DNA of 63,631 bases, from contig CAJINV010000014.1 of assembly GCA_905178155.1 (NCBI GenBank), positions 310,001 to 373,631 on the forward strand, given 5' to 3'. The stretch comes from Amoebophrya sp. A120. Taxonomy: Eukaryota > Protista > Dinoflagellata. Below, one piece after another: positions 4,101 through 63,631 of the stretch. The position numbers were made by a program, and so were the translations under genes. The notes under the pieces are model-generated. The model was not told where the DNA came from. It saw only the letters and a program-made list of their open reading frames with translations, and did no database searches. Positions within the stretch are counted from its first letter, which is position 1. The number at the start of each line of letters is the position of its first letter.

Positions 4101-7100
4101 TTGGACTCGCCCGAGCGAGTCAGGTCGTACCGGTACAGCCATACCTGATAAAATGTCTTAATGTTTCTGTTTATGCTGTAGATGTAGTTGTACAACTTCT
4201 ACTTCATACATGTTCATCTACAGCTCGTAACGAAAGGTAAAAATGCGTGGCAATTTTTGTGCAGCAGCGCTGCATTCATGAAGATCATGCATGAACTTGA
4301 TATTTGTTTTGCAAAAATGCTGGTGCATGTGCAACTAACACACGAAAGTAGTACACGAAAGTAGCTTACTCAAAAACTTTTGCTTGATAGCATAAGCGGC
4401 AATAACCTCTTCAGCACGACAAGTACAGCTTTTAAGTATAGTGAAAACTCTGTACCGACTTATCTGCGTGGGCCACGGCCAGGTAATTCGAGCATTTCGA
4501 GAATGCCAGGTGCATTATCCTGTGCAAAAGTAGTATCGCACTCGCTCCGGTCCGTGCAAATTGGAATCATGCGTGACATCAAAGGTGGCCAGGTCTTAGA
4601 ATTATGAGCAAGCAAAAACATTTCATTTTTCCTTCTGAAAATGAAATCTGTGTTCCGCTTTCCACCAAGACAGAATGCGATACAACTTCTGCAACTGCAT
4701 ATGCGTGACGGGCTCTCGATTTTCCCTAAACTGCGCGATTTCGGTGAGTTCGGCGTTCAAAATTCGGATATGAAAGTGCACAACTCCCCCTCCCCCTCAT
4801 TTGTATTGCATGAACCGCAATACAAGCGTCAGCAAGAGTACGGGTTTTGCATGACAAATTTGGACAGGAGTGCAGTGTTATTTGGGCTGCCAGAACTTGT
4901 GATGCAAACAGTCCTAAGAGCCAAAGCGTAAGTTACGTATCTTGCATCACAAATGAGGGGGAGGGGGACTTGTGCACTTTCATATCGGATCTGCCCGTTC
5001 GTGAACCCCACGGCTAAGAGTCCGCTGGCGCTGTATTCCAGAATTTGCGGAAGAATCTTTTCGAAGATTTTCACGGTCTGGAGTGTTCTCGAGTGGTAGT
5101 TCCAGAGGTGAATAAACCCCGAAAGACCCGAAACCGCAACTAAGGGCTCGGACGGGTGGCAACAAAGCCCATGGACGGGAGAGTCGAGACCTGTATTGAT
5201 AAATAGTACAACTTCTCCGTGTGGTCTGGCCGTCGATCGTGGAGACCTTCTTGGGCTTGATGTACTTGTACGTGCCAAGCCCAAGTACAAAGTTACACTT
5301 ACATCCTCGTGCATCAATACGAAAACGAATAAGGTACTTACATCAGTGGCTAAGTACTTAAAAAATCCTACCTTGCAGCACCAATCGTCCCCTCCTTTGC
5401 TGCGGCTCCAGCTCGAAAAACAAATCCGACTTGCAGGCTACTACCAGCGCGCTCGCGGTGGCGACAATGAAATTTGGGCATGAGAACTGGAAGTCCGTGG
5501 ACCCGCTCTGTTCTGTATGCATTAAAAATTACACGTCTGGGCCTGAAATTCTAGAGGTGCAAACTGCACACTATGGATCACACAATCAAATTTTGTCTTT
5601 GTGATGTGATTATCCTTATCCACAGGACACATTGACATTACAACTACAGGAAGTCCTCTGTACTAGTTCAACACAACACGTACTTACACATGGAGCAAAA
5701 TAATAAACCGGTCAGTTTTTGCTACACGGAAACCGAGTGGGAATGTCAATGGCATCTCATGCGGTAAAAAGATACGCATCCATTAAAACGGGATTGCATA
5801 TGCAGGCGTGGGCCATGATACAAAATCTGCACGACAATAAAGAGCGTCAGCATTTGCATTGTTCATCTAGACCCAGATATAATATTTCTTGCATTTGATA
5901 TTCCATCGAGCTGGAGGAAAATCCATTGTTGCTGTCCATTTGAACCGAGGTGGAGTTCGCGAAGTCAAAACTGACGGAGGTGACACTTCCCGCAGACAAA
6001 TCCTCGAACCACGCTTGCAGACGGAATTGGGATATCCACTACAAATATCGATCTAGGTCTGGACGGGCAAGCATGCGCGTGTTTGTCTTGCATTTTTTTC
6101 GTCATGAACCACACAGGCGCTCGGTCTGGAATGCATTGCGCCATCAGTGAAGTAGATGAGCATCACAGATCTTGGGTGGATCACTTCTTAATGCCTGTCA
6201 TTCCGCATGACAGATTCGGATTCGCCATCTGTAGATAGTATCAAAAATGAAACAAGTTTTGGCACTCTGCATTGGTTAAACCCAGATTTTTGTGCGATCC
6301 GATCTATCATCCAGACTTGGCATGATAAGTTGACGCACCACCGCTCTTCCAGACGCAGTTCGACTACATTTGCAATGCGTATGGTAATCGTAGAACCTGA
6401 CTGCGCCGTCGGAGGAACCGGCCACGACGAAGTTGCCAAGGACTTTCAAAACATGCAGGGAAACTTCTGGCGGACACAAGCGCAAAATTTTCACAGCTCG
6501 TCGCTCGTCCGGCCGTGACAAATCGTCCACGATCAACGACAAGTCCCAGATGACAACGTCCCCGTCAAGTGTGGCGGTCGCGGCCTGGGTCGATTCGGGC
6601 AGGAAGATGGTCTGCGTGAAGTCGCCGACTTTCTGCTTGAAGTCCTTTGCGGCGAGCGCCGGGGAGTAGAATTGGAAAGTCATCTTGTCTTTCAGGCTCG
6701 TGTCGTTTTTTCCCCACTGCCAGAAAAACACCCGCCTTCGGCCGTTCGTGGCAATTTCGTGGATGTCCCACCGGTTGAAAATCTGATGGATAGAGATTTT
6801 TTAAATACTAATGTCAATATGGAAGTCAGTGCACAAATGAAGTTTGCGTCGGCCGCTTCCGCGTAGGATGACAAACACAAAAGCCTTCTGAAAAAATAAA
6901 CGAGAACTACTGCACTGTGCGAAATTATTGCTTCCCGTCGCCACAACGTGTCATAACCGTACTGACAAGTAACAAAAAACGATAAAATAAATCACAACCT
7001 TACCACGCACGTCTGCACGTCCTGCGTGCCGATGAGCGCTGTTGCGAGTGGCGCACTTGACTCTGAGGTCCAGTCCCACACGCTTAGATACTGGCGCATC

Positions 7101-8787
7101 TCCTCCCCGTCGTACTCCGGACTGGATAAAGTCGCTAAGTACTTGCTATCCGCTGTCATGTCCAGGGCCACGATCCCGTTTTTGTAAACGCTGTATGGAA
7201 CGATTCTCAAGCACTACATTGCTAGTTGCTACATAAAGATTTGTTCTCGCGTGGATTTGCCTGCAACATGCATCTTCCACACGATCAAGCTACTTGTTCG
7301 CATGACAAGTTCATTTCGAGCAGGAATGGCTAAACAGTATGGGAGTCTACCCTTGTGCCGAATTTCAAACACCAGAGGTGCATCTACATCTTCAGGGCCC
7401 CCCTTTCTTTATTCACTTTTGCTCTTCCTCTTCCTGCATCGCAGACTCATGCAAGACCTGACAGTGTCACGTTTGAGAGCTCCATATGTTGAACATGATC
7501 TTTATGGGCTTCCCCGTTGACCGGTCCCACACGGTGAGCCTGTTTGGTCGAATAACTGATATTCATCTTCTAGGACAGAGTATTTTCATCTCTTCACGCG
7601 GAGGTGAGTTGGGGGAAAAACACAAATACTACTTTTTACTTTGCAGGACCCCGCTACGTAGAAGTTCATCCTCAAATCGTTTTACTTCGTACTGCATGGA
7701 AGAAAAACAGCAACATCAACATAAAAAGAACTATCACATGGAATCCGGTCCGGTATCGGCGGTGACGATCCATTTTTTGTCCGTCGAGAGGTAGCTTGCG
7801 GTGATGGGATTCACGTGTCCCTGCAGTAGCTTCTGCACCCCCGATTGCGTGTCGTAAATGACCCCACTGTTCGCGCTGGGGTAGAAGATTTCGTTTCCGC
7901 CCAAATGGTATGGATAGCAAATATGTCTGGGTCTGGAAACTTGTGATGCAAGGAACAAGGGAATAGTGACTACTGTGTAATGCGCTGCCAAGCATGACAA
8001 GTTTTTCCGTGGTCCTGAGTTGCGTGCTCCGCATGAGAAACTGCGTGTCTGCATGACAGGCGCGAGGAGCTCTTCGCGGACACGCAATACAGACTTCGGA
8101 GTCATGCCAGATTAGCATGACAAATCTCGCAACCTCCCAGACCCAGACATATTTGCATTTGATAAATGGTGTACGCCATTTACGACGTCCTTGCTGAAGC
8201 CGCAGATCTATCCCGTGCAAAAGTATCCATCGCACTCGTATTGCAATCATGCATATACAAATCTTTTTTTGAGGAAAATCCGCATTACAAATTTCATTTC
8301 TCATGCTGAGGAAATTTGTAATGCAATTTGTACTAGTACGATACTTTTGCGGTTCATAAGATCCACTGCAGGCTCAACGCAGGCGACTCGGTCCCGACGA
8401 CGGCCGTCTGCTGCGAGGCAAACTCGGGCTCCGCACCCGGGCCGCTCGACGCAGCAGAGAGCTCTTGCACTTCCTGGGCCGGTATCAAGTGCAAAAGTGT
8501 CTGGGTCGGGAAGAGTGCAGACTTCTTGTCATGCATATTTTGTATGATGATTGATGCCTCTAATGCATGATCTAGCAACACAGATTTTTAGAGGGCTTCC
8601 TAATGCTTATTCCACATGAGAAATGCCCTCTCCGCGTAACACAGACTGGAATCCTGATGCTGGTCATGCAAAAATACAGATTTTTTTGGAATCCAAAGAC
8701 AGCATTACAAGTCGCAATCTTCCAGACCCAGACATTTTTGCAATCCATAGCCGGGTCCGACCCAACCGCCGGGTCCCCGCCGGCCAT
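1191..8787 (-). CDS. CFAP251: Cilia- and flagella-associated protein 251 (WDR66), multi-exon; about 12 introner introns plus several GT-AG introns
   Basis: Exons join in frame: MAGGDPAVGSDPAQEV..ALSLQWICGFSKDVVNGVHHLGGNEIFYPSANSGVIYD..LLQGHVNPIT..WIVTADTG; DGAVRFYDYQFRLQAWFE; GLCCHPSEPLVAV; PLDGNPFRQMGVIAHPG; EIRDYFYYCQIRSHGE..LMCALGCFPT..FVQLYVNHRPVF; ends VQDVLGFGTE* (TAG 1191-1193). These are recognisable WDR66 WD40 and C-terminal EF-hand-like motifs. Confidence 0.9.
1216..1510. mobile_element. Introner family C
   Basis: TIR tatcgaaaggaaaaatccccc..gggggatttttccttttgata; TSD gcacg; restores QDVL|GF. Confidence 0.9.
1560..1885. mobile_element. Introner family C
   Basis: tatcaaaatgaaaaatccccc..gggggaattttccttgcaata; TSD gcgga/gcaga; restores FLNSA|ADE. 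Confidence 0.8.
1972..2255. mobile_element. Introner family A (degenerate)
   Basis: tatcaaatgcaaatat..atatttgcaatgtata; TSD cccac; restores HLVG|ACE. Confidence 0.85.
3524..3758. mobile_element. Introner family D
   Basis: tatggcgttctcaa..ttgagaatcccata; TSD actga/tctga; homologous to 17944-18178. Confidence 0.8.
4516..4701. mobile_element. Introner family B
   Basis: tatcctgtgcaaaag..tgcaactgcata; TSD tgcat/tgcgt; restores VTH|LAFS. Confidence 0.8.
4769..4984. mobile_element. Introner family E
   Basis: tatgaaagtgcacaactccccctcccc..ggggagggggacttgtgcactttcata; TSD tcgga; restores GQIR|ILN. Confidence 0.9.
5516..5900. mobile_element. Introner family A (degenerate)
   Basis: tatgcatt..tctagacccaga..tgcatttgata; TSD ttctg/ttcca; frame restored. 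Confidence 0.65.
6033..6381. mobile_element. Introner family A (degenerate)
   Basis: tatccactacaaatat..atttgcaatgcgta; TSD tggga/tggta; restores FYDYQ|FRL. Confidence 0.7.
7194..7486. mobile_element. Introner family D-like (degenerate)
   Basis: tatggaacgattctcaa..ttgagagctccata; TSD cgctg/tgttg; frame restored. Confidence 0.65.
7909..8164. mobile_element. Introner family A
   Basis: tatggatagcaaatatgtctgggtctgg..ccagacccagacatatttgcatttgata; TSD aatgg. Confidence 0.9.
8209..8358. mobile_element. Introner family B
   Basis: tatcccgtgcaaaagtatc..gatacttttgcggttcata; TSD agatc; restores QWI|CGF. Confidence 0.9.
8483..8749. mobile_element. Introner family A
   Basis: tatcaagtgcaaaagtgtctgggtc..gacccagacatttttgcaatccata; TSD gccgg. 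Confidence 0.9.
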
Positions 8788-9942
8788 GGTGTTCGTTTCT
8801 TTTTAAGAGTCAAAAATTGAATGATGATGGTGTCTTTAATAATACTGTAGCTTTACTTCTTGATGATTGTGTCTACGTTTTCTTCGGTCTGCAGGGTCTA
8901 GTGATGATGTTGCGTCAGGAACAGCCTTCGAACGACTAGTGCATGTACACCATATGCACATCATCAAAGGAAAAGGAGGACAGAAATAAAGCTATTGCTA
9001 CGCTGTCGCGTCGTACGAGCGAACGGCTGTTGCTATGGTGGCGAGCCGAGTGGAACATCAACGACCAGGATATAATTGACGAAGTCGAAATGTTCGCTCA
9101 AACATTCATCTCTCAACCACGATGAGAAGCGTACTAAACACGACTCTCCAAGAATAGCATGGATGAAGACTCATCTCTGTGTCCCTCTAGTTATACTTCT
9201 CGAAATGGATCGTGTGGTAACGATTCCACAGATCGGCATAGCAACGTTGATGAAAATAGACGAAGCTATCAGATGAACTACTACGCCTCCTGCGCGGCGC
9301 AATGACACCGGTCGAACTCGAATGTTGCTCTGTCTGCATAGAAGATGCCACAACAGCACATGCCGATGAGAGAAAGTTGTTGATGATTACGGCCGCGCGA
9401 AGCCGAGCACCCGCAATCTTTGTGACTGTAGTCCTATGTAAATAGTGGTTACGCCAAACCAGCAGAGGAGGCGTGTTCCTCTCGTCTCTAACATGATTTC
9501 ACCAGTTTCTATCTCATCGGTTTCCCGGGTCTCTTTCTTTCCATGCTGACTTTTTGTCGGAGTGCCTGATAGTGTACTTCAACTTCGACCGCGAGCACGA
9601 CCATATTCCAGTACTAGCGTAGCTGCGTAACTTCGTGCGCTTGCGAAACGGAAAAGAAAATACTATAGTACGACAAGACGATCGGACCCATGTGAATGCC
9701 TACCATGCGGCTCCCTGGTGCAGGAACGGCGGGCCGCCCCCCCGGGGGCGGGGATAGATGCTGTGATAGCAGCTCTATACAAAACCAAGAGAATCAATGA
9801 AGTAAATGTAAAAAAGTAAAAACACACAGAAGCTTTTCTAGGTAGCTGTAAAATTGTCTGAACGCCACTCAATTACTTAGATCACTTGTCTTCGTAAAAA
9901 ATAGTACACAGTTCCGAAAAACGTCAACGCCACTCCTTGTCT

Positions 9943-12900
9943 TTATCCTGCTCTCCGCGCCTTGCCCTCCTCGTCCTGCTGCTCCTGAAACAAGACCTGT
10001 GGTGTCTCTGCGTCCCACGCCCATGCAAGTTGTGGCGCTGCAGAATCACTCTCTACTTCCGCTTCAAGATCATCTTGTCCCGGATTTGTTCCTGTTGCTG
10101 CAAATGCGGACTCTGGTGCTCCTGTTCCTTCAGCTTTCGGTGTCGCCTGATTTGTTTTCCCGTCACCAAAATTATTCCGACTGACGACCTCGACGAGCCC
10201 TGTCAGCGTTGCGAGCAGACTCGCACACACGCCCAGGCCGAAGATCATGTACAGAATGGCGACCATATCACAGAAAAAAGTTTTAACGTTTGGCAACGGA
10301 ATTTGTGATGCAGAAATGCATCCCAAAACGTGCCAAAATTTGTCATGCATAGCATGCATGCTAGGCAAAATTTGTCAATGCATTTTTGCAATCTGTGAAA
10401 ACCGTTAACGTTACCACTTTTTCCTGTGATAGACCACGCGGGACAGGTTCGAGCTCGGCGTGTAGTCGCCGAAGCCGATATCGTATAGGAAAAATCCTCC
10501 CTCCCCATATTGAAAATGCATGCGCCTGAAAATTTGTGATGCAGATTTGTGGCCACAAATCCTGTTTGTCTTGCAAGAGCGCAAATCTAGAGAGTCCGCC
10601 GCACTATGTAGGCGGTTTGTGATGCTGTTGGGTCTACAGCATAGGCGTTTGCCATGCCAGGCTCGGCATATGCCTGCAGTTCTGCTCTACTGCAAGACAA
10701 ATGTGATTTGTGTATCCAAATCCAGCATCAGAAGTTTCGTTTTGACATGGGGAGGGGGGATTTTTCCTTTTGATAGCCGACGGCAGAGAGGGTCACGAAG
10801 CAGAAATACAGGGATTCCAAAAACGTCCAACTCGGCTCCAACCGGTGAAACAACGACGCGCCGAAAAGAAGGAAAGCGACGAGAAGGGAAATCAGGAAGA
10901 GGAGCCTGTTGAGAAACGAATTGGTATGATTGATGAAGAGAAATTGATATTAATATGTTCGATTTGACATTTCTGTCATGATAAGCCCCTGCTGGTTGTA
11001 GTGCCACCAACACCTGGAGGATAATCTTCCCGTTCTACTACAGTCTTCTTGTTTCAATACTTGTCAAGCTCACGACATTTAGTACTTGACATCTATGAAG
11101 GCCTAAGTCCTTTGTGCAAGAAGTCTTCGTGGAACAACAAGCAACCCCGATAGTACCTGCTGTTTTTGCTCTGCAAGTTGACGACTCTGGCCTTCGCACC
11201 AACCGAGAACCAGGCTTCGGCGATCAGGAGCAGGTTGAAGGCCATGATGGGCAACCCCACCTATCAAATGCAAAAGTGTCTGAGTCTGGAAGAATGCAAG
11301 ATTTGTTATGCATATTTCTCATGACCCATGATGCCTGTAATGCATGACCTAGCATCGCAGACATTTAGAGGGCTTCCTGGTCATGCAATTTCCGCATGAG
11401 AAATGCCCTGTCCGTGTAGCACAAACTGTACCCCTCTTGCTGGTCATGCAATGCAATTTCGTTTAGAGTCCAAAAACAGCATGACAAGTTGCAATCTTCC
11501 AGACCCAGACACTTTTGCAGCTCATACCACCACCCCGAAGGCGATCGTCAGCATTTGTCCGCCGGAAGTCACCGGATGACTGTGCCCGTAGCCGATTGTG
11601 GTTGCGAGACTGTATCAAATGCAGATGTGCCTGGGTCTGGAAGAGTGCAGAAGTTCGTCATGCAGGTTCTGGATGCCCCAAAAGGTCTGGAATGCGGGTC
11701 TAGCATCACAAAACTTGAGACAGCTTCTCAATGCCTGGTCCGCATGACAGATCGGCTGTTTTGGTTACAAGATATGGGCAACTTCTGCTTTCCATGCATG
11801 AGAGATTTTCGTGTGATCTGAAATGCGCATCACCGGTTGCAACTTCCAGACCCAGACATTTTTGCAGTTGATAGACTGGTGAGGAAGAACAAAGTCCCGC
11901 AAAAGGACCAGTTGTTTTGGTCCACCAGACTGTTTCGCCGGCTGCTCCGGTTTTTATCGCTTGAGCTAGTCTTGGTGGAGGATGAAATTCTTGTTTCTAT
12001 GCCCGTTTGCAAAGCGGAGCCGCGTGTGGAGATGTCATGCACGTTGCTTCCATTTTCGTTTTGTTTACTCATTTTTCTCACAGCGACGTTATTGAAGCCA
12101 TCATGATGATAAGAGTCGTGACCTGGGCGCGCAGGCTGGCGCTCGTCGTGGTGCGAAGGCGATTTTGCTGATTGGTGGTCCTCTTGTTCTGAAGATGTGT
12201 TGATAGCACGTTTGTTCTCAGTTGAATGCTCTTGTGTTATTTCAGTTGCGGGTACGGACGGCATCCTCGAGGAGGAGGGTGGTAAAGATGAAGCGAATTC
12301 TGGTATTATGCGTTGCTGTGCGTCCTCCTGTTCTGCTTCCGTTGCATCGTCGCCTGATGTTGTAGCAGCTTCACCTTCATCGCCTCCTTGCTGCTTTCCA
12401 AATAGTAGCTTCCGCCCCCCGAATCCAAACAGCTTTAGCTCCGCTGTCCGCGTTGCGATGGTGCTGAGTAAATCCGTCTTGCTTTTCACCGCTTTTGCTT
12501 CCGACTTCAGAAGCTCATAGTCATAATCAGCTCCGTTGTTGAAGTAGTCTTGCAAGGTTTCGGAAAATTTTTCTTGGTTTATGAAAGTGCACAACGGCTC
12601 CCGCTCGTTCTGCCGTCATTTGTCGTGCAAAGAAGCAACCTCAGCTCTTGCTTTTTGGCACTGCCTGCATGGCAGGTTCCAGCACCAGCATATCAAACGA
12701 TGCGATGGATAAACTGCATCTTTGCTGGCGCTTCTGTTGCAGTGCTCATGCAGACTGCCAACTGGGGGACAAAGTAGACGGGGAGATGTGCACTGTCATA
12801 TGATTCTTGCAGAAGGACAAGCCTTCGAAGGCCGGGTCGTTGCAGTACTCGAACTAGTATGCATTGTAAAAGTATCTTCGCACGGGCGGCGGGGCAATCG

Positions 12901-13211
12901 TAATTGCAATCATGCGTTACAAGTGTTTTTTCTACCTAAACGTAAAGGCAAATAAGTCCGCATCTTCACAAATTGCTGTTCTCGTCATGCTGAAAAAAAT
13001 TGTCATACGACTTCTGCCGGTACTACGATACTTTTGCACAGGATATGGAGTAGAGTTTTTTCATGGCCTTGTATAGCGCTCGGTTTTGCTCGTAAGTGTC
13101 CAACTCAGCCTGACGCTCCACGAGGGGGAAAACAATCACACCAGCGGTGTAGTACAGGGCGAGAAGAGTGATGGCGAGGCGCCAACGAGACTGCTGCAGA
13201 GGGGAGAGCAT
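9943..13211 (-). CDS. Two-pore-domain (K2P/KCNK-like) potassium channel, multi-exon
   Basis: M1 RLAITLLALYYTAGVIVFPLVE; P1 WSFCGTLFFLTSLATTIGYG; M2 GQMLTIAFGVVGLPIMAFNLLLIA; M3 LLFLISLLVAFLLFGASLF; P2 WTFLESLYFCFVTLSAVGFGDYTP; M4 VVAILYMIFGLGVCASLL. These appear only after removing 6 introners and a GT-AG intron (10906-11013). The 3' end is uncertain. Confidence 0.85.
10266..10431. mobile_element. Introner family F
   Basis: tatcacagaaaaaagt..actttttcctgtgata; TSD gacca; homologous to 15792-15965. Confidence 0.9.
10479..10775. mobile_element. Introner family C
   Basis: tatcgtataggaaaaatcctccc..gggggatttttccttttgata; TSD gccga; splits AVG|FGD. Confidence 0.9.
11262..11526. mobile_element. Introner family A
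   Basis: TIR as family A; TSD ccacc; restores GVVG|LP. Confidence 0.9.
11613..11873. mobile_element. Introner family A
   Basis: TIR as family A; TSD gactg; restores LTSL|ATTIGYG. Confidence 0.9.
12580..12800. mobile_element. Introner family E
   Basis: tatgaaagtgcaca..tgtgcactgtcata; TSD tggtt/tgatt. Confidence 0.8.
12858..13045. mobile_element. Introner family B with eroded TSD
   Basis: tatgcattgtaaaagtatc..gatacttttgcacaggata; flanks actag/tggag; frame restored with the same geometry. Confidence 0.7.
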
Positions 13212-14076
13212 TTTTTAGCAATTAGTATACTGGACAACAAGCAGTGGAATGTGGGCTAGCGCTCCCAGATAAGCATAAGATGCTCAAAGCGTCGCCGATC
13301 TTAATATGCTTACGACGTGCATCTGAACGACGAAACAAGATGTTAAAGCAGGCATCAAGAACGAGACTACCCCTACTTACTTCCATAGCTGGTAACAACA
13401 TAACCAGACGCGGGCTCTCTCTTCACCTCTACTGTGTTTCAACGAGAGTAAGTAATTGGAGGAGGAGGCTGGGCTATGCATCTTCAATGCAGAAACTCAA
13501 CCATTAACTACTACTTCTTCCAATTCGTATTTCATTCTAATCAGTCAAGTACCACAGTGATGCGCATGTCTCTCAACAGCTGCGGTTCCACTACAAGGTC
13601 TGCGCTTGAAGCTGCACAGGAATCCAAAGCCAAACACACAGCAACATAGTTACGAACGTCTGGATTGAATTCACAGAGGCCCGCTGCGTTTCCTTGTTCG
13701 GTTCCGGTTTTCGTTGGAAAAAAAATAGCTTCAAGTAAGTAGATCGTGCCTCTGCCCGGTCAAGAGTTCACACAGTTGAGGGAGCATTCCTTTCATCAGT
13801 GTTCGACGGCATAGTGACCAATGAGCCACCAGTCTGGATTTGACTTTTATTTTCAACTCGTTTTTTCAAGGTCGTAACGTGACATCAATAGGACAAAACC
13901 ATTCTACTTTCGTGAACGAAAAAGGAGCTCTCTGTTCTGGTAGAATACAAACTAACATCAACAAGCAGGCACAAGGCTGTGCATAAGGCTTCAGTGCTGG
14001 TGTTGACTCGTTCCTTTTCCTGTTGTTCCTGTTTATTACAGGAAATCCTCCGTTCTTCCTGCGTTTTAACCAGTTC

Positions 14077-17000
14077 TCATGCCCCAGTTCCCAACAACTC
14101 CTCGATCCGCATGGTTTGCTCGACCACTTTCTTCTGTAACCGCTGTTCCTGTTCCGAAGCCGCCGTCAGCTTCGTCTGCAAATGCGCCACCTCGATGGAG
14201 AGAGACGCTTGATCGGTCTGCAGCCGCTTGGCTTCCTCCTTGTAGCTGTGTGTTGGTTCTTGCTTGATTTTGTGTGGTAAGTTGGATAACACGTGGTCCT
14301 CCACATAAATGCATGAGCACCAGAGAAACATCACTAGATCAATATGACAGTAGGTGGAAAAGTACATTTCTGCCACGGCTTCCGACTCCTTTCTTTTCCT
14401 TCTTTCTGGCTCTAGCCACGCGTTTATCAACCAAAAACGTGCTCCTAACGCCACCAACGATCTTCACAGATTGCAGGCAGGGATAACATATTTTGCCTAC
14501 CATGGATGCTACACACTACAGATTTCAATTTTATCTTGTGTCTACGCATGCGCCCTTGCATCACAAAGTCCGTTGACGTTATTAACACGTTTTCTCGTGA
14601 TAGCTTCGACCGCTTCCGCCGGTACAGTTTCGTAGACGGAGTACAGCCTAGCAGACAATTCGTCATTCAGCTCGTACTGCTTCTGCAGCAGGGATTTATC
14701 CGATGCAAAAGTATCAGTCTCGTACAGCCTCGCTTGACAGACACAGATCTGGGCTTTTGCTACCTACACTACATGCATGTTGTTACAGATTGCGCCTATT
14801 TTCATCGTGCTTGTGGCAAAATTTTCATGCGAATTCTACTAGTCCGATACTTTTACTTTTGCAATGCATAAGCTTGTTTGGACAACAGTTCTGCCTTGTA
14901 CTGTTCGATGAGCTGGTATGCAATACAAATTATTCCCGATGAACTACACACTCACGCACAAAATACATGACAAATTTTCCTAGCTTCACGATCGGCACGA
15001 CTTGTCAATGTCTATGTCATTTATGTCACTACTACAATGCGGACAAAAATAAATCGTGGTCATGCAAGTAGACTACAATGCGGATGGGATAATTTCGGGA
15101 TCAACTTTACTGCGGATAGCTGGCCTTGCTGCTTCTTCTCCATCTGGTCCAGGTCCAGCATCTGATTCTTCTGCTGCAGTAACTGCGAAAATTCCGTTTT
15201 CGTCTGCAGCTCCTGTTTCAGCGACGCGATCTCGGATAGTAAATTTTTCTGGTATGATTCGTACCTGGTGTATCCTGTGTAAAAGAACTATCGCATTAAT
15301 GTGACGAATTGCAGCCACGTAAGTATGTTTTATGACGGGCGTGCGTTGATACCTGAGTCTGCATGATGTATCCGGTTTTTGTTCAGTATCATTTCTTTTT
15401 CTCTTGGAAACTTAAATGACTTGTGATGCAATTACAACCTAATGCGATAGATCTTTTGCAAAAATGCATAGAATGCACTTGTCGTTGATTTCCGCCAAGT
15501 CCGAGACTTTGGCTTGGAGGGCGGACATGGTCTGCGACTGCTCCTTCCTCAAATCTTGCAGCTTATCCTGTGCAAAAGCATCGTACTAGTAGTTGTAATT
15601 GCAATACAAATTAGCCCAGCATTAGAAATGAAATCTGTAATGCGGATTTACCGTAAGAAAACAAAAAAATTTGTAATGCATAAGTGCAAGAAGTACTACG
15701 AGTACGATACTTTTGCAGAGCATACAGCTGCTTCAACAGCAAATTCTCCCCGGCAGGCATTAGCAGTGCTTTCTGGTAACTGTCCAGCTTCTATCAGAAG
15801 AAAAAGTGTATAGCGTTAACGGAATTTGAATTTGTCACGCAGTAATGCATCGCAAAACGTTCCCAAATTTGTCATGTATGGCATGCATCCTGGGCAAAAT
15901 TTGCTATGTGTATTCGCAATGTATGAAAACCGTTTCCGTTAACGCTAACACTTTTTTGTTCGATAGCTTCTGCAATTGCTTGTCCTTCTCCGCGATGAGG
16001 TATCCACTTTGGAAGAAAATTTTTACCGTACAAGTTTATATACTGGGTATAGAGGGCGGCCAGTTTTATTCATGACAGAACCGATTTCATTCGGCATGAC
16101 AAAGTCGCTTTTTTTCTCTAGCCTGTCGGAACAAGAATTTGTTTCCACTTTATTGATTCTCCGCTCCTGTTCCGGAGTGTTGTACGGTATCTATTGGTAG
16201 TAGTTGTAGTACTTATTTTGTTTTGCATATTATGATCTCCAACTCTTTCTTTTCCAACTCCAAGTCGGACAACTTTCCTGACTTCGCCGACAATTGCGTG
16301 TTTAACTCCTGCTCCACTCGGTTGCGGCTTATGCATGGCAAATTTCAACCGTTCTGGCGTGCGCGCGTGCAATTGCGATTTGACAAGAGGGGTTCTGACC
16401 AGCATAGCTGCACTAGCTCACTCAGCAGTACAAGTTCACCTGCGTAGTTTCAGATTCAGACAGTGGCAAAAATTGTCATCGTACATGTTTCTTTATCGTC
16501 GATGCACGGTGATGAATTGGAGAATTGAAATTTGTGATGCGTACGGCCCATCACGTTGGAGTCCACGTCGGTTTGCAGTTCTGTGATCCGCTTCGTCGAC
16601 TCCCGATTCTCAATCTTCAGCTCGTCACAGAGGATGGTTTGCTTCTTCATCTCCTTTTGCTGCTTCTGGTTCGTTATGCACTGCAAAACCAAATCAAAGT
16701 ATCGCACTAATATTTATACTAAAGCGCATCAAAAATGAAAGACGGAATCTGTAAATAATGCATTTTCAGGTAGACAACCCATACGAGTGCGATATTTCAT
16801 CATCTGTTGCACAGGATATTCGCATCGACGAGCTCCTGGATGCGGTTCAAGTCCGTCACGGCCTGCTTTTCCAGTTCCGCAATCCGCGTTTTCAACACCT
16901 CTTGGTGCTTCTTCAACATGGGGATTTGGTTATCCTTGCAATCGACCAGCTCATTGGAGTGCTTCTTGATCTCTAATTTCTGCGTCTCAATAGTGTCCAG

Positions 17001-18322
17001 CAGTTCCTTGTTCTTCTGTTCGGACTCATGCAGTGCCAGGACCAACTTCTCCGTGTGCGCCGGCGCCCACTTCAGGTTCAGCGGGTCTGCGATGCCAGGA
17101 TTTGAGTTCTGCGCGGGGGCTGCTGTTGCAGCTGGTCCTCCGCTGAAATAAACGTCGGAACTGGAGGACGTGGGAGCGACACCTCCTGCTGCAATTTGAC
17201 CAGCCGGTGAAGTTTTGTTTCCTGCGTTAGTCAGAAGCATCTTGTTCTCGTTTTCCAGCATGTTCACTTTCGTCTTCAATGCTTCGATCAGCTGTTCCTC
17301 CACCGAAGTGGCGGAATTTGCGTTCACCATGTCCATATCAAATGCAAAAATGTCCGGGTCTGGGAGATTGCGAGATTTGTCATGTTAGTCTGGCATGGCT
17401 CTCAAGTCTGTCATGCGCGCCAACCAAAAACCACACTTCTCTGTCATGCAGAAACGCAGTAGTTTGTCATGCAGATAGACAAGACTATAGCAATTGCAAT
17501 TCCAAAACCTGTCATGCTTGGCTGTCGATGAAGGCGTCCACATGAAGATTCGCCAAACAGCATCACAAGTTTCCAGACCCAGACATATTTGCAGTTGATA
17601 GTCCACCAAATCCGCTGTCTCCGGGTCCATGGCAAAGGACATCGTGATGTCGTTGGCATTTGGATTACATCCTGTGCAAAAGTATCGCACTCGTAGTAAT
17701 TGCAGTCATGCATTGCAAATTTTTTTCCCAAGGTAAGTCCGCATTTACAGATTTCATTTCTCATGCTGAGGAAATTTGTACTGCATTTATACGAGTACGG
17801 CACTTTTGCAATTCAAGTTCATAGATTATTTCCAGCACGAGCATTCATCTTCGATGTCGTTGTACTTATGTTGTTATTCCCTGTACTACTAGTCTGGTTC
17901 AGTTTTCGCATGTTTGAATTCGCCAGGACCTGCTTTCGGATCTTATGACGTTCTCAAATGTTACATTCTCAACAGGTATATGATTTGTCCTGCAAAACTA
18001 CAATCAGAATCGACATGGTCAAGCTGCTTCGCATGACAAATTCTTGAAGGGCCAATCAGGCTGAGAAAGTGTTCCAAATCTGTCATGCAAGACGCGCAAG
18101 GTCACCCCGTCCACCTTTTCCGTTCTTGCATCACAAATTCATGCAACAGTTCAGAATGTAACAGCTGAACACGCCATAGTTCTCCTCCTCCGCCGTGCGT
18201 TCCTCCTTCGTGCGCCACTGCACCGCGTGGCCGTTGGAGGACGACAGCGGCCGCTTTTTCGGAATCTTTGTGGGGGCGGTGGACGTTGGGCCGCCCTGCA
18301 TGGAAGCCTTCGCGGTACTCAT
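14077..18322 (-). CDS. Coiled-coil protein of unknown function, multi-exon (about 10 introners)
   Basis: Heptad-rich exons (EQLIEALKTKVNMLENENK; ELVDANQKQQKEMKKQ; RVEQELNTQLSAKSGKLSDLELEKKELEII; LKQLQDLRKEQ) join in frame after introner removal. The 3' exons are less certain. Confidence 0.7.
14697..14870. mobile_element. Introner family B (degenerate)
   Basis: tatccgatgcaaaagta..tacttttgcaatgcata; flanks ggatt/agctt. Confidence 0.65.
15564..15724. mobile_element. Introner family B
   Basis: tatcctgtgcaaaagcatcgtact..agtacgatacttttgcagagcata; TSD cagct. Confidence 0.9.
15792..15965. mobile_element. Introner family F
   Basis: tatcagaagaaaaagtgt..acacttttttgttcgata; TSD gcttc. Confidence 0.85.
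16330..16543. mobile_element. Introner family G
   Basis: tatgcatggcaaatttcaa..ttgaaatttgtgatgcgta; TSD cggct/cggcc; restores VMGR|NRV. Confidence 0.8.
16675..16818. mobile_element. Introner family B (degenerate)
   Basis: tatgcactgcaa..ttgcacaggata; TSD ttcgt/ttcgc. Confidence 0.75.
17336..17600. mobile_element. Introner family A
   Basis: TIR as family A; TSD gtcca; restores DLVD|MVN. Confidence 0.9.
17668..17823. mobile_element. Introner family B (starts CA)
   Basis: catcctgtgcaaaagtatc..cttttgcaattcaagttcata; TSD gatta. Confidence 0.8.
17944..18178. mobile_element. Introner family D
   Basis: tatgacgttctcaaatgttacattct..agaatgtaacagctgaacacgccata; TSD gatct/gttct. Confidence 0.8.
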
Positions 18323-19012
18323 TTTTAGAGTTGTCGTTGGTCTTTGTGCCGAAGCTGCCGACTTTGAATTCTAGTAATATACGCTAGGCCTAGCAGTAGG
18401 AGTAGTGACAGATGAATATTTTACAAAGCGCTTCTTAATGTTAACTGGAAATGGTACGATCACCACGTGCGCGTGGGTGTGCAACTGATTGCGCATTATA
18501 TAGATACTCCGATTTGGATTTCCTCCACAGGTAAAAAGCCGTTTGCAGACGCTCTACAACTGTAGTTCTCTTCGCCATTTATTTTGTTTACTACTCGACG
18601 AACGTCCTCGCAGCGGGTCGCTCGTGTCACTCAAAAGCATCTGTCTAAAGCTGTAAGTACCTCAGGTGGACAACGTGAAGACAAGTGATTCGCCAGGGAA
18701 CTCGACCTCGAGGCAAGAGTAACCTGCTAAATCAAATAAATACAAATCAAGCGCATGAGGAGGAACAACGAAAGCGAGCACAGCAGCGGCATAGGCATTT
18801 TCGGAGGTCAGTTTTTTTTTTTGTTGACAAATGCAAGTACACAGAAAAGCAATGGATTCTTCGCTTGTCATTTTTTTGAAAAGAAAAGTTGTAACTGTAA
18901 GGAATTGCGTGCACTGAAGAAACACGGCTCACGTGCTGTTATGTCAAGTCAAAGAATCCGACACATCAACAAACTGAGTTGTGAAAAATCTGAGTGAAGA
19001 AAGTAGCTTTCC

Positions 19013-22000
19013 TTATTCCTGCAGTTTCAGGGGTGCAAATCGCACGATTCCAGCGGCGCTCGCAGTCACAACAAACATTCCGTTGTCGCCAGCCCGTGGA
19101 CAGACACTGCAAGCGGTGATCGGTAGCTGCTTCCATGTTGCGGTGACTTCATGCTCCGCATCACCACCTTGGTCCACGTTTTTCTGACTTCTAAAGTCTT
19201 CCTGTAACAGAAAACTACTGCTCGAGCTGCCTGCGCCCGCGCCGGACGATCCAGGAGAAAAGTTTTTGCTTTGAAGCTTTGTTGCCGTTGTCATCACGCT
19301 CGGTTCTTTCGCGGCCCTCATCAGATTCACCTTCTGTTCGCAATTCCGTACCTGGTGCAGTAGTGGCTGCAAGTTCATCGCGATTCCGCGACTGTTGAAG
19401 CCGTAATTTGTCGCGATAACCCCGATAATTGAGGAAGAGAGAGCCTTTGTTGAAGATGTCGCTTTACTATCATGTGAAGATGTCGCTAGTTGTAATTCTG
19501 TCTTGTCGCTGGTTCTCGTGGTACTTCTCGTCATGTTCTCCTGATTCTGTGAAACTAGTTCCAAATAACTCCGGTGTCTCTCCCGGATTTTGCTCGTGAT
19601 CAGTTCCTGTCCGCCCGAGATTTTGTCGTAGGATTCTTGAATGGCCTGGTTCCACCGCTCATTCGCGTTGCCGAGGTTGTTGCTCGGTAAGAACGAAGTC
19701 GTGGAAGTAGATTGTTGCGCACCACTAGAAGGTTGTTGCTGCGCGGTAGACGAGTAAATCGTGGCATTTTTGTTCATTCTCGACGAGGATAGCAGGGGCA
19801 AAGAAGAAGGATCAGCATCATGAGCTACTTCCCCCGTTCCGTGATCGTCCTCCCCTTTACTCACCAACTTCTTCTGCTCAAAACTGATGGCAAACCACTG
19901 CTGCATGGTGACTTTCGTGTGCGCTTTCAAGGATTTCGGCAGTAACCACAACACGTCCCCGGTGTCCCACGCGGTCAGAAATCCCCCCTGCACTGTGTCA
20001 CAGCAAGACAAGCAGGAAATGCCGTGCAGGCCCGCAGACCAAATCTTCATCGTAGAGGACGAGTCGGGTTTGGTCGGCTGGTGCTGGAATGGCTTGCTAT
20101 TGTTGTTGTTTTGTTTCTTTCCGGTTTGATGGTCGTGCTGGAGTTGTGCAGCTTGTGTCGAAGAAGTCGCTCTGCTTTTCATCTTATCGTTGTCGTCCAT
20201 CAGATCGTCTTCTTCAAACGGACCAGTCCCGAGGTTCAGCTGCCCCAAAGGATTCTCAACCTCGTCCAAAAAATCTAACGCAGAGGATGAGGAAGCCGGG
20301 GTGGTCGCCCCGGTCCCCTGGAGGTTAGGTTGCTGCTTCATCAAGTTCGCAGCTTCCTGTTTCATCGCTAAGTAGCTGCTGCCAGGTTTATTCTCCGCTG
20401 CTGGTACATCAACTATTAGCTCTTGTTCCTTCACCTTAAAGCTCAGGCCCTGAAACTGCCCCTCGAACAGGTTCAGAACCTGCGACTCGCGCCACTGACG
20501 CACGAACACTTCGGACATGTTGGTCATGGACCACTGGAGCTGATCGATCGGGACCGGGTGGGCTTGGAAGACCGCGATCGGCGCGGAGGTCGCCCTGTTG
20601 ATCCTGGAAAACTTTTCGGGGTAAATGTCGTCGTTGCTGATTTTATCGTCGAGCGGTTTCATCATGTTGTGGAAGCCGGCGCGACGTGGGCCGCCTTCAG
20701 GACGAGATGAACCTGTGCGGGGGAGAAGATAATTATCCTTGGCGGTAGTTCCAACTTGTTCCATAGAGACGTCAACGTCGTTCATGTTCTTCACCATTAT
20801 ATTTCGGCCCTGCTGCTTCGAAGAAGAAGCCGAAGCCGCACCAGCCCCGCGAGATGAACCCCCGCTGCTTTTTCGTTTCTGCGACGTGGTGGCGGAAGTT
20901 GCAGCCTTCGCCTTAATATTATTCGCGGAAGAATTTTTACCAGCGGAAACCGTGGCGTCGCCGTTGTTTTCGTCGTCGTTGTCGTCGTCGCGAGAAGTAG
21001 GAGCAGCACCGGCTCCTGTGGTGGAAAAACTCGCCGTGGAGGCAGTAGACCCTTCAACATCCTCCATCGCCCCGGTGGGCAGCATGTAGACGAAAATTTT
21101 CCCGCTCGCGTCCCCGCTGATCAGAGAGGTTCCGTCCGGGGAAAACGCCACGGCCGTGATGGCTTTCTGCTTCAGCTGCGGCTTAAGAACAGCAACGAGA
21201 TGGTCGCGGTCTTCGGTAAATATTGGCGAGGGTTGTACTAGATTGTTGTTTTCATTTCGTCCGCCTTGATAATGCAGCTGCCTTGGACCTGGTGGTCCTT
21301 CATGCTGCAGCTCTCGATCTTGTTGTGCATCTTGCTTTCTCGTCTTACTGGACGATACATTTTTCATCTTTGATGCCGAGGTTTTGCCGTGCCTCGACTC
21401 GTCGCGACCTGCAGGACCAACAGGACGACCCCCACGAGGACCTCCTACTGGTGCATGAGCTGAGTCCTCCCGCCCGCCCATGTAGTCTGCCTCCAACTGT
21501 CGCAAGCGACTGAAGTGCGGATTTTTCCCCGCGTCTTCCACCAGCAACGTCGGGTTATTCACCTTGCCCTTCGGCGCGTAAACCCGGATCCCGCCGTACC
21601 GTTCTCCAGCGGCGATTAGAAGCGTTCTGCGCGCCACTGGAGATGCCAGTTGAGATGTCGACTCTGCTTCTCGTGTGCGCACTGTAGGGGACTGGGTTCC
21701 TTTCTTGTCTTTGTTGTCAACAGCTCCACGTGCTGGAGGTCCAGTATTGCTTTTCTTGCTGCCTCCTTGTTGTTCTGCAGTAGTACTGAGCAACATGTTG
21801 CTCGTCCCTTTCGCTTTATTAATATTGCTCCCTGCAACAGCACCACCACCAAGACCAACAGGCTCAGGCGCGCAGCCGGGTGTCGCGTTGCTTACTAGGG
21901 CAGCTGCGCCATGATCGCCGGGGTCCACGTCGTCGCCAGAGCTTTGATTTTCCACCCCCACGTGATCCCAGACCGCGAAGCAGAAAAACTCCCCGGTGGC

Positions 22001-25000
22001 GAAGTTCCCCTTCAAGTACTCCCCCGAGCGGTAGTCCCGGTTGTCCAACTCCCGCGTCATCAGCCCGTTGTGCGGAATATCCACGCGCGCTTCCCACACC
22101 GGCGGCAGAAACAACTGCGGCATTCCGCGATCGATCTTATTTGTCCGGCGAGTTCGCCTCGATCTCGTTCTATTCTGCTCTTGGTCCAGAGACAGATTTC
22201 TCCCCTTTGGTGGGTTTTTCGGTAAGGAAAAAATCTGCAGTCGCCCGTCGCCGCGCAGGACCAAGAGGAGCCCTAGTCGTGGGTGTTCCGAGTACACCTG
22301 GGAAGTTCTCTCCAACTTACTCTCCGGATTGTACTTGATGAACTTCAAATCCTTGGTAAAAGCCCCCGTGTGGCAGAGGGTAAACCACTTCTCGAACCGG
22401 TAGGAAGTCGTGTTTGTCAGCGACAGGTCGCGGCTTATTTCGTGTTGCTTGTTGAAGTTCATCTCTCCTCGCTTGGAATTCCTTCCAGCTGCCGGCGTGC
22501 CACTGCTTTTGAGGCTTTTTGAACTACAATTCGACGCTGCCGAGGGGCTCTTGTCGCGGTGGCCCGGTGAAAGAAGCACTTGTTTCGTTTGGATCAGCTT
22601 GACCAAAACGATTTCTGCCAATTGGGACTCGTCGAAGACCATGATGTCCAGTGACCGCCGCGACGCAAACTTCTCCTTCAAAATCGCCATGGCGGCCAGA
22701 TTATGCATTGCAAATGTGTCTGGGTCTGGAAGGATGCAATTTGTGATGCTACCTTTGGACTCTACATAAAATCTGTATTGCATGAACAGCAAAAAAGTTG
22801 TAATTTGTGCTACGCGGAGAGGGCATTTCTCATGCAGAACGAGCATCAGAAAGCCCTCGCAAAATCTCTCATGCTAGGGCATGCATCACAGACCTCATGG
22901 GTCAGGGTCATGCAAAATCTACATGACAAACTCCTGCATTCTTCCAGACCCAGACATATTTGCAATGCATACAGATGAGTTTCTTCCTCCGTAGTGATCT
23001 CTTCTCCATCGGGGAGAAACAATTTACCTTGCTCATCATCGTAGCTGCCTCGGCCACTTTGCCTGTTCTGGTTCATCTTCTTTCCCCCGGACTTCGACCT
23101 TCCCCTGTTCGTACTAGTTGTTCCCCCACCATTCATCATTCCCGTCACGGAGGACTTCGATCTCCGCGCGTGGTTCGACGCGGTTGCTGCATCATTTCTG
23201 TGGTTCGGAGAAGACGATAAATTCAAAAGTCTTTTGTCTACTTCCTGGTGATGTCCTCTACTACCGCCAGCTCCTCCCCGGTGCGTCGCGGCCCGGCCGG
23301 CAGTGTTTGGATTGGTCGTGCTGCGTCGGCCCCTTGTTCCGGAATTGCCGGTCGCAGCAGCGGAGGACGAGGCGAACTTCATGTTGTGATTTTTTCCACC
23401 AGTAGAGGAAGCAGGTGAAGCCGACATAGACCCTGTTTGAAGGAAATTATAGCTCCCAGAACTTCCACTGCTGCTCCCGTCTTTGCGCAAGTGCGCCGTG
23501 CAGTCATACATGGCACAACAGTTCACAACATTGCCAATGTTGAAGAATGTCTCCTGATTATTACTTCCTGCAGACGTTGGAAGATGAAAGCCGCTCTGAT
23601 GTTGTTGCTGAAAGGAAATATCAAACTCCTGCTTCGGGGGAAGCAGCTTCGGCTGTCTGCTTGGTGTCCTTCGCTGTTGTCCTCCAGGAGCTCGTCGAGG
23701 CTCCACTACGTCCATTGGCGAGTAGTCGCCGTCAACATGTTCTTGACTTTCTTTTGTTGATGAAAACCCGCCTGGCATTTGTTCAAAATTCCATTGCTTT
23801 CCCAAAGCAGTCTGATTTTCCCGGATCCAGACATTCTGTTGCTGATTCAGTTGTCCTCGGGGGGCTCCTGCTCGAGGACCTTCCACAACAGGGGGCGGAC
23901 CAACTGGTGCAACGGGTTCGCGATAAAACTCTTCAGCGATGTGCTCGACCAGGAGCGAGGCCGCGGCACCAGGAGCTGCGGCCCCTCCTCCTCCTTCTGC
24001 TGGCACTACCATCAGCGTTGGGGTAGAAGTGGAAACTGTCCCTGCGCCGGCCGGCGCACCTCCTTGGTCAGCAAATGGTGCGAAGAGGTTCTTGTTCGGG
24101 GCGCGAGGAGCCGCACCTGATGAAAGTTGGTTACTGGTAAAACTTTTTCGCCTACTAGACGACGACGAAGATGAGCCGATCATTTTCAGAGCGCCGGCAC
24201 CGCTGCCGTCCACAGAGCTCCCGACGGAAGATGAAGACTCCACCGGACTCTGGTCGACCCAACTAGGCGTGGCCGAACTGGAAATCGGGCTTGGAAGGTC
24301 TAAATTCTTCTCCAGTTCGCTGGACAGCACGAAGGAGCGGATCACAGGAGCAGGGGGCTGGAGTTCTACTACTTGGGCGTCCTGATTTCAAGTTGTGCTT
24401 ATTTTTACATAATTTGATTACTTCTTCGATTTTCTTCATGCATGTTCTTATTTCTACGAAGTGGTTTGTCGAGCCAAGAGGTGATGTCTGTGTGTAATAG
24501 AAGACCTGCTTATGTATAATCGTCTTCTATCAAAAATCGAAAAGCGAAATAAAACTTCGTAAAAGCTCAAATAATGTTCTTTCATACCTGCGCGCTATCG
24601 CCTTCCTGTTCCTGGTCCACCGCAGCAGCCTTTTCAACATAATCCCCTGCACCGTGCTCTACCTGTACTTCCAGCTCGTCCGTAGCTGGTTGAACAAGCA
24701 TCTCCCCGCTTTCATCATCTTCATCTCCCTGTTCCTCGTCCTCCACATTCTCGTCGTGAAGCTCCTCCTCAGAACCAAATTCCATAAACGAAACTGGCGG
24801 CGTATGAACTGCAAAAGTATCGCACTCGTATAAATGCATGACAAATTCCCTCAGCGTGAGAAATAAAATTCCTAATGCGGATTTACCTTGAGAAAAAAAA
24901 CTTGTAATGCATGATTGCAATACGAGCACGATACTTTTGCACAGGATACGGTGCCCAAAACGGGTAACTTTCCTCAATCACCAGGCTCTTGTTGACAACA

Positions 25001-48014: not shown

Positions 48015-49133
48015 CTAGTTTTGCACACATGGTCGAAGGCAGTGGACAATAAGGCATGGCAAAAACTTTATCCGTCTGGCAGCTTGCAGCTGGGAACTTA
48101 TCCAGTTTGCGCTTCTTTTTGTGTTTCTTGCTGTGGGCTCTGGGACCAAAAGAAACACCTCGACAACACCACTCCGGATCACTGCCTGGCCCCCCTCCCA
48201 TGGCCATGGTAGTGTATATTAATTTTGCGCGCGTTTCAGAAGCCACCCAGACCCAGTTGCTAAGCCGGTTTCACTCCGAAAGAAACGGAGAAAGAAAGGA
48301 GGTCGGGCAAAAGAGCGCGGGGCGCCCAGGCTATGTGTTACCCCGTTCTCCCCCCCTCCCCCCCCCATTTTCCTGCGTTTTGTTGTTTATTCAATGCGAA
48401 CGCACAAAAGACAACGAAAACCGGGCAACCTAGGCCATGAAGCGCAAAGCGGCACCCTGGAAAAAAAAGTTTTTACTTTAGCCCATTCCCCTGCCGGGTT
48501 TTGCAAATGAAAATTGCGCCGAAAACCAAATCTCTGCCGGACTTTTGGCAAAAAAAAAACTGCCGAAATTTGGCAAGATTGAAAAGCCTTGTCATGGCTT
48601 AGGTTGTCCGGCTTCGCATTTTGCGCGTTCATGCTATCCAATGGCCCGCCGCCCTACCGCCCCCCGCCTCCTTTTTTCCTCTGGCTATTCCAATCGGCAC
48701 GGGCTGCCTAAGCAAATGCGCAGGCAGTGAGCGCAGTCCACCAGCTCCCCACCGCGGGCAGCCACTTCGGCGATGGCTCCCAAACACGAAAAAAGCGCAG
48801 CGCCGCGCCGCGCCTTGGTTGTTTCATTTACGCAGGGCCCCGCGGGCGCGGAAGCAGTTCGCGCAGCTGCGCAGTTCGCAGTCCGTGAGACAGCTCGCGC
48901 CGCTGCGCAGTTCGCAGTCCGTCAGTTCGTGCAGCTGCGCAGGTCGCAGCTTGTCAGCACGTTACGAGGCCCCGAATTTTTTCAGTTTGCAGCTTGTCAG
49001 TACGCCACGAGGACTCGATTTTTTTCAGTTTGCGGTTTGTCAGTACGTTACAAAACACCGAAAACTCGAAAGCCAGAACCTAGGCTAGTTTTGCACACGT
49101 GGTCGAAGGCAGCGGACAATAAGGCATGGCAAA
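48015..49133. repeat. Region bounded by 49-bp direct repeats with internal GC-rich tandem repeats
   Basis: ctagttttgcacacrtggtcgaaggcagyggacaataaggcatggcaaa at 48015-48063 and 49085-49133 (2 mismatches); gctgcgcagttcgcagtccgt-like and tttttcagtttgc..tgtcagtacg repeats at about 48855-49050. Confidence 0.85.
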
Positions 49134-58650: not shown

Positions 58651-59252
58651 TTCACCGATAGGCTATGGAAAGGAAGAAAAAGCCAACTTGAAGAGTCACT
58701 TCTCAATCTTGTTGCGCGAGTTCTTGTGCGGTGTCCAGGAAGATTATGATCGTGGTTTCGTTGCATACTGATCCAATGAAGTCGGGACTCTCGGGCGGTC
58801 CTCTGAGCCTCTACAGCTACAACGTGAGTCCTCTGAGCCACTCCAGCCGCTTTATGTTTGTAGCAGCTACAGAAGAACAAGAATCGCAAAGAACTACATT
58901 TAGATAAAATAAGGTACGAGTCATGCAGCAAATGTATCACCGTTACATCATCTCTCAGCGTATACTTAAAAACGCTGGAGATAGGAAGAGGCGAGTTTTT
59001 TTAGGGCGGCTAAACGGGTTGGCAATCTGCATTCTAGTCAACAGAATCCAAACGGAGGCCGCCCACATTCTCGTGTGGCACGTTCTTGTATAGATAGTAG
59101 TTGATCTTTCCGCTACTTGAGCTTTCGCAATGTTCTTGCAATAATTTAGATTTAGAAAATTGAGGCTCCAGGATCTTCATCTGCACTTGCGAACATACAC
59201 GGAATTCAACAAAGTGATCTCTTCTTACCCCACAGGAATCAATTAACCACGC

Positions 59253-63507: not shown

Positions 63508-63631
63508 TTCAAAGCTTATCGCAGGAGCCTGCGGGCCGCCGCGGGCTCCACCACTTCCCCGCGGCCCTAAAGGGCCGCGGACAACTACTGTCGCCCGCGG
63601 CGGCCCACAGGCTCCTGCGATAAGCATTGAA
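63508..63631. repeat. GC-rich palindrome centred at 63569/63570, truncated by the window end
   Basis: 39-bp outer arms 63508-63546/63593-63631 (2 mismatches) and inner hairpin ccgcggccct-aa-agggccgcgg share the same centre. Confidence 0.85.

Follow-up and report, generated by a model that had tools for sequence, protein, structure and literature searches.

Introners of one family are excised in both orientations in Amoebophrya sp. A120, with a fixed cut register and directional end bases

Introners of family A in the marine parasitic dinoflagellate Amoebophrya sp. A120 are excised from minus-strand genes in both of their possible orientations, and in each case the element plus 5 nt is removed. 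The copies lie in a stretch of 63,631 nucleotides (GenBank assembly GCA_905178155.1, contig CAJINV010000014.1, positions 310,001 to 373,631, forward strand), here called the window, and all positions below count from its first letter. The elements are repeated introns with TAT...ATA inverted ends that run into a run of A, as in the known A120 introners. A first-pass annotation had noticed both orientations and proposed that recognition relies on a symmetric stem of terminal inverted repeats (TIRs) and on the target duplication rather than on directional signals. Recognition is directional, not simply symmetric: the cuts are placed unequally with respect to the two ends, and a post hoc statistical test shows that two bases, U at +2 and A at −7 of the intron, are fixed while their mirror positions are not.

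Excision of both orientations

Seven clear copies of family A are present in the window. Three lie one way round (orientation 1: 8483–8749, 11262–11526 and 11613–11873) and four are reversed (orientation 2: 22702–22971, 51341–51603, 59822–60083 and 62707–62983, the last two belonging to subfamily A2); they are referred to below by their first positions. In alignments with the terminal 35 nt trimmed, for which the shuffled maximum was 36, copy 8483 scored 206 in the same and 42 in the opposite orientation against 11262, 225 opposite and 35 same against 51341, and 186 opposite and 46 same against 22702. By orientation, 59822 clusters with 22702 and 51341, as had been suspected from their resemblance. 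All seven copies are flanked by a perfect 5-nt target duplication, and the host strand is minus for all of them, in the case of 51341 by a short frame only. The family A coordinates and motifs first reported, and the presence of both orientations in minus-strand genes, are therefore borne out.

Contigs assembled from sequencing runs (X2 and X3 from one sample, X1 and X4 from another; presumably RNA, although this is not on record) skip copies of either orientation. These contigs carry neither strand nor expression level. The joint 8477→8750, which removes copy 8483 plus 5 nt, occurs in contigs of X2 and X3 with 0 mismatches and a 119-nt side, and the X2/X3 contig likewise skips two GT-AG introns. 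For comparison, run X5 holds 5700–7943 unspliced in a single piece, without the 8477→8750 joint. Copy 8483 lies 38 nt past the start codon of the CFAP251 gene; its retention would introduce an in-frame stop, and it is absent from the public protein P0001. The reversed copy 22702, within a minus-strand open reading frame (ORF) of 2649 codons that its removal keeps in frame, is excised with 5 nt at the joint 22696→22972, found in X1 and X4 contigs with no mismatch and 255-nt sides. Excision in both orientations, as originally claimed, is thus observed directly at two contig joints.

Public proteins also lack 11262, 11613, 59822 and 62707 (P0057 for the first two, P0058 for the others). Among the joints listed, none spans 11262 or 11613, where cover is low; 11262 and 11613 both lie in a channel gene, the latter just ahead of its Ion_trans_2 match, and for 11262 a GT-AG register (4/1) is possible too. 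Copy 51341, near the end of a short predicted minus-strand ORF, is placed by sequence, duplication and frame; the frame supports it weakly (14 codons, then a stop), and no contig or protein record covers it. Of the joint rows listed in two surveys, 5/15 in one (including 18042→18124, within an element) and 8/15 in the other were set aside as repeat cross-mapping. Family B is also excised both ways: 8209–8358 is removed at the joint 8203→8359, and 15564–15724, which lies in the opposite orientation (24 same, 95 opposite), at 15558→15725 in X1 and X4.

The raw-read runs X8 and X9 were placed on repeat ends only. About 127 raw RNA reads of X8, with 53 starts, fall on the repeat end at 11479–11516 but run on as sequence of a different locus. 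They point to retention of a family A copy in some abundant transcript of the X8 sample.

Orientation relative to the host strand

Orientation was tabulated against host strand, as the first-pass annotation had proposed, over the 64 kb window and 421 kb of further loci, a part of the genome. A pattern scan yielded these 154 loci, all from one assembly (JACKZZ01 contigs) in which these element families recur with identities of up to 94%; real hits numbered 120, compared with 3 in shuffles. The loci contain 322 distinct elements, 247 of which have a perfect 5-nt duplication. Host strands were assigned by a codon model with the window as training data; of the held-out window chunks it called 62 correctly and 0 wrongly and left 20 uncalled. 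Together with 44 elements in the window this gave 366, of which 201 were both strand-called and assigned to a family.

Orientation bias relative to the host strand is absent. The two orientations stand at 98:103 (n=201), with A at 19:25, A2 at 21:16, A3 at 19:27 and B at 21:13. Removing the element plus 5 nt keeps the frame in 210 of 283 cases, compared with 80 for plus 6 and 73 for plus 7, and within the kept frames the orientations stand at 75:78. The assertion that frames are restored either way holds on this wider count and only weakly for 51341.

Cut register

All 14 contig joints over inverted-repeat elements excise the element plus 5 nt. The joints are compatible to different degrees with the possible placements of the two cuts: a register of 1/4 (on the host strand, the 5′ cut 1 nt ahead of the TAT and the 3′ cut 4 nt past the ATA) fits 14/14, 2/3 fits 12/14 and 0/5 fits 11/14. 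The 1/4 register is also allowed by 18/18 inverted-repeat introns of three public proteins, 12 of which are additional to the contig joints. On the host strand the intron therefore reads N-TAT...ATA-NNNN, with +1, −2 and −1 free. Since 1+4 equals the length of the duplication, the pre-insertion mRNA is restored.

Two introns with decayed duplications separate the cut from the duplication itself. At 15267–15471 (joint 15266→15472) only 2/5 duplication positions still match, and the 1/4 register alone is possible. The old GT..CT intron at 58660–59285, 626 nt long and mapped with P0058, has 0/5 of the duplication left and a single possible cut, and it keeps both U+2 and A−7. As both are cut in the same register, the duplication restores the message without being read, and its supposed role as a recognition signal is not supported.

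Base composition at the ends was examined in a larger set. Profile searches gave 379 copies, of which 84 lacked a strand call, 11 matched in <3 duplication positions and 2 had mis-set ends; these were removed and one boundary was corrected by hand, which left 282. Read in the 1/4 register, 98 of these have G at +1, 29 end in AG and 10 have both GT and AG. A GT-AG register is open to 1/14 contig joints. Two apparent preferences were rejected. A drift towards G at +5 at host-5′ ends (12/14 window joints) is gone in the larger set (G in 103 at +5, C in 113 at −8, n=282), and an apparent AG preference at the acceptor (26/197, compared with 28 six bases upstream) is a codon-phase effect.

With the 1/4 cut, the 210 kept-frame elements comprise 109 in phase 0, 47 in phase 1 and 54 in phase 2. 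Of the excised elements, 24386–24586 is the sole one without a terminal ATA and also the single GT-AG case in the 1/4 register. At L078:3097–3376 the target duplication is 8 nt long, and the 1/4 register would retain one extra in-frame codon.

Fixed bases at the intron ends

Among the 282 copies, host-5′ ends read TAT in 271, TAC in 7, TAG in 3 and TGT in 1; host-3′ ends read ATA in 271, ATG in 6, ACA in 3 and ATC in 2. The variants are unevenly distributed between mirror positions: 0:8 for U+2 versus A−5, and 0:10 for A−7 versus U+4 (Fisher p=2.3e-5, post hoc). With strongly called loci only, 189 in number, the counts are 0:6 for U+2 versus A−5 and 7:0 for U+4 versus A−7 (p=6e-4). The TAC variants 6033 and 16330 are among the excised joints. 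Since the host strand carries T-to-C as well as A-to-G changes, the asymmetry is not accounted for by a strand-specific mutation bias. The pair-breaking combination C+4/A−7 was seen 7 times in this set and the wobble U+4/G−7 never; a pure stem would tolerate U-G but not C-A, and the asymmetry is therefore opposite to what such a stem predicts.

In a comparison with U2-type introns, U at +2 is present in 282/282, and the A at −7, also in 282/282, is a candidate branch adenosine, the one exception lying outside the set; G at +1 and the terminal AG occur in the minorities of 98/282 and 29/282. Conventional sites peculiar to each orientation, which would have offered an ordinary explanation, were rarely found: a single joint is open to GT-AG, and the branch motif YTRAY was present 8–60 nt from the element end in 6/35 copies of one orientation and 0/35 of the other. 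U12-type introns have an RTATCCT donor and the branch motif TCCTTAAC. That type was rejected on the basis of the free +1 position, of C in 170 and G in 103 at +5 (n=282), and of minor snRNAs being reported absent in the part of the Farhat et al. text considered here (PMC7789003); the branch motif itself was not searched for.

At repeat positions 11–13, the host-3′ U run has 18 variants and its A-run mirror 37, with no single position significant.

The terminal hairpin

An end-to-end hairpin is predicted in 16/17 inverted-repeat introns, with 13–34 pairs in the terminal 40 nt compared with 2–8 in shuffles. GT-AG introns (n=8) have 0.6–13.8 predicted end pairs, near shuffle values in most. The intron 16001–16229 is excised with 3.9 predicted pairs in its terminal 40 nt; when the first and last 60 nt are considered, 16001, 24386 and 58664 have 14–27 predicted pairs. 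No excess of G-U over A-C was found on the transcribed strand (197 G-U, 203 A-C), and so no sign that selection acts on the RNA through wobble pairs. Repeat positions 4–8 are often mismatched; in family A they pair no better within a copy than between copies (208 pairings, 210 expected). In 5/14 excised introns the three outermost pairs are predicted to be open. Column variation is 0.048 in the inner repeat and 0.079 in the interior, as transposition would also predict. The predicted hairpin is plausible as a bridge between the intron ends; its presence does not imply that splicing needs it.

At repeat positions 4–8, a few end types recur in both family A and family B, and the ends of one copy resemble each other no more than they resemble those of different copies; exchange among termini is one possibility.

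Mechanism of excision

A hybrid mechanism appears probable, if by no means secure: the hairpin would define the intron, and a relaxed spliceosome would recognise U+2, branch at a predicted adenosine at −7 and make the 3′ cut at a set distance. The elements are transposons resembling miniature inverted-repeat transposable elements (MITEs), which insert in either orientation and duplicate 5 nt of the target. The long hairpin would juxtapose the intron ends, perhaps replacing the U1 step; A−7 would attack the 5′ site; and the 3′ site would be placed by distance, not by an AG. Either orientation would give the same signals because the inverted repeat presents TAT at both ends, and directional signals supplied twice in this manner suffice to explain orientation independence. 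The rule predicts a lariat with its branch at −7 and a 6-nt tail. A bolder formulation is put forward with greater hesitation, namely that neither GT nor AG belongs to the splice code, which would consist of an N-U donor, a branch A seven bases from the intron end, an acceptor placed by a ruler and a transposon hairpin replacing U1. If true, every TAT-ended transposon that duplicates 5 nt would make a perfect intron anywhere and either way round, which would account for the invasion by tens of thousands of introns.

Several points weigh against the hybrid mechanism and the data on which it is built. Locus strands depend on the codon model, and a Pfam strand check confirmed 1/16 loci, the other 15/16 giving no hit. 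The asymmetry of the end bases was noticed before it was tested, on overlapping data, and just 2 variant copies lie in plus-called loci. The element 26715–27802, outside the set of 282, has G at −7 and A at −8, and its removal preserves a long frame. Repeat positions 4–25 vary alike at both ends, so that no U2-type consensus is enforced around A−7. Among the GT-AG introns just 2/8 have A−7, and the A−7 mode would accordingly be a second mode of 3′-end selection. The hairpin may reflect transposon ancestry only, and the identity of the splicing machine is inferred.

A non-spliceosomal, euglenid-like machine that binds the hairpin, reads U+2 and A−7 as sequence determinants, makes its cuts 1 nt and 4 nt away from the hairpin and ligates the exons is an unlikely though substantial alternative. 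It would accommodate the free terminal dinucleotides, the hairpin predicted in 16/17 introns and the lack of a branch consensus in the search described above; euglenid introns themselves have inverted-repeat stems and yield circles, not lariats, according to the part of the source considered (PMC11282704). Against this stands the joint at 24386, the sole one without ATA, which is GT-AG in the 1/4 register. Furthermore, a U at +2 and an A near the 3′ end, the two bases that are fixed here, are general hallmarks of the spliceosome. Nearly all spliceosomal proteins were found by Farhat et al., as stated in the portion of their text considered (PMC7789003).

It is rather improbable that nothing beyond the linear motifs, N-TAT at the 5′ and ATA-NNNN at the 3′ end, is needed, with the hairpin a transposon relic. 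The missing wobble signal and the excision of 16001–16229 with so few terminal pairs agree with this, but TAT and ATA are presumably too frequent to mark an intron, and even 16001, 24386 and 58664 retain predicted pairing between their terminal 60-nt segments. The lower variation of the inner repeat also speaks against motifs alone, subject to the same expectation from transposition.

The original proposal, a symmetric stem and target duplication with no directional sequence signal, is very improbable: the 98:103 orientation count, the 13/14 joints without a GT-AG register and the predicted hairpins suit it, and its stem survives to that extent, but the cuts lie 1 nt from one end and 4 nt from the other, end variants depend on host direction, cutting is exact despite 2/5 and 0/5 duplication matches, G-U pairs show no excess, positions 4–8 in family A pair no better within copies than between them, and the terminal three pairs are predicted to be open in 5/14.

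Comparison with known introns

The published comparisons here draw on parts of the cited texts. Farhat et al. (2021; PMC7789003) described A120 introners with inverted repeats starting with TAT, ~7 variable bases, an A run and direct repeats; they reported non-canonical borders, proposed a hairpin, did not find U1 snRNA and noted the absence of minor snRNAs. The elements studied here come from the same organism and share the TAT inverted ends, the direct repeats (3–5 nt by their definition) and the removal without GT-AG. What differs is the register, fixed at 1/4 here and called variable or unknown relative to the hairpin in those passages, and the singling out of U+2 and A−7; ‘orientation’ there refers to gene blocks.

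Introners of Micromonas and Aureococcus (PMC10228655) are likewise non-autonomous DNA transposons that insert both ways, with the mRNA restored via the duplication. In the examples considered, splice sites are brought by the element or co-opted from element, duplication or flank, whereas here GT-AG is found in 10/282 copies and 1/14 joints. The introners surveyed by Gozashti et al. (2022; PMC9860276) are also DNA-transposon introns, and the survey method allows for copies in opposite orientation. The nonconventional introns of euglenids (PMC11282704) resemble the present ones in an inverted-repeat stem a few bases inside the cuts, in non-canonical borders and in duplication-like repeats, but they have CAG/CTG at +4 to +6 and −8 to −6 and give circular products, where TAT at +2 to +4 and ATA at −7 to −5 are found here. 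In Fritillaria borealis, MITE-derived introns are removed by an adapted spliceosome and have mostly AG-AC and AG-AT borders (PMC11282704), whereas the first and last bases are free here. Entamoeba invadens (10.1101/2022.06.08.495308) also has a branch A at a set position, at −8 and within a full AYTRAY motif, compared with the single fixed A predicted as the branch at −7 here.

The elements themselves, and two-way introner insertion as such, are thus already known, while the fixed register and the U+2/A−7 splice rule are probably undescribed: no orientation count, fixed register, branch-point analysis or such rule was found in the literature searched, with subscription papers and the figures of Farhat et al. 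2021 outside its scope. How Amoebophrya removes most of its introns, with neither GT-AG borders nor a detectable U1, is treated as open in that literature. A single rule, a fixed register and two bases, could take the place of seemingly chaotic border dinucleotides and would help annotators to settle ambiguous junctions. It would also imply that a spliceosome and a transposon family may become matched, such that insertions are cost-free at any site and in any orientation.

Host genes and other elements

The gene hosting copy 8483 extends over 2081–8787 on the minus strand and has 15 introns, 9 of the inverted-repeat type and 6 GT-AG. Its exon 6384–6779 is 100% identical to a 986-residue Amoebophrya sp. 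A120 protein (P0001), whose named relatives are CFAP251 (CFAP251/WDR66). The channel gene with the Ion_trans_2 match (P0057; 9946–13211, minus) has 7 introns, 6 of the inverted-repeat type and 1 GT-AG. One window exon each matches the A120 proteins P0057 and P0058 exactly, the latter corresponding to the host of 59822 and 62707. Curated Rfam models gave 0 matches in the window at gathering score, and viral contigs gave 0 matches.

The element 26715–27802 is 1088 nt long, has 178-nt inverted ends (88%) with TAC...GTA termini, is flanked by a 5-nt duplication and contains further short inverted repeats. Its removal fuses 294 and 2355 codons in frame, and it has no relative in the 154 loci. Two near-palindromic elements with TAT...ATA ends lie at 44144–44433 and 63517–63622; the first is flanked by a perfect 5-nt duplication and can be removed with a frame preserved. 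At 48940–49068 a 43-nt unit is present in three tandem copies.

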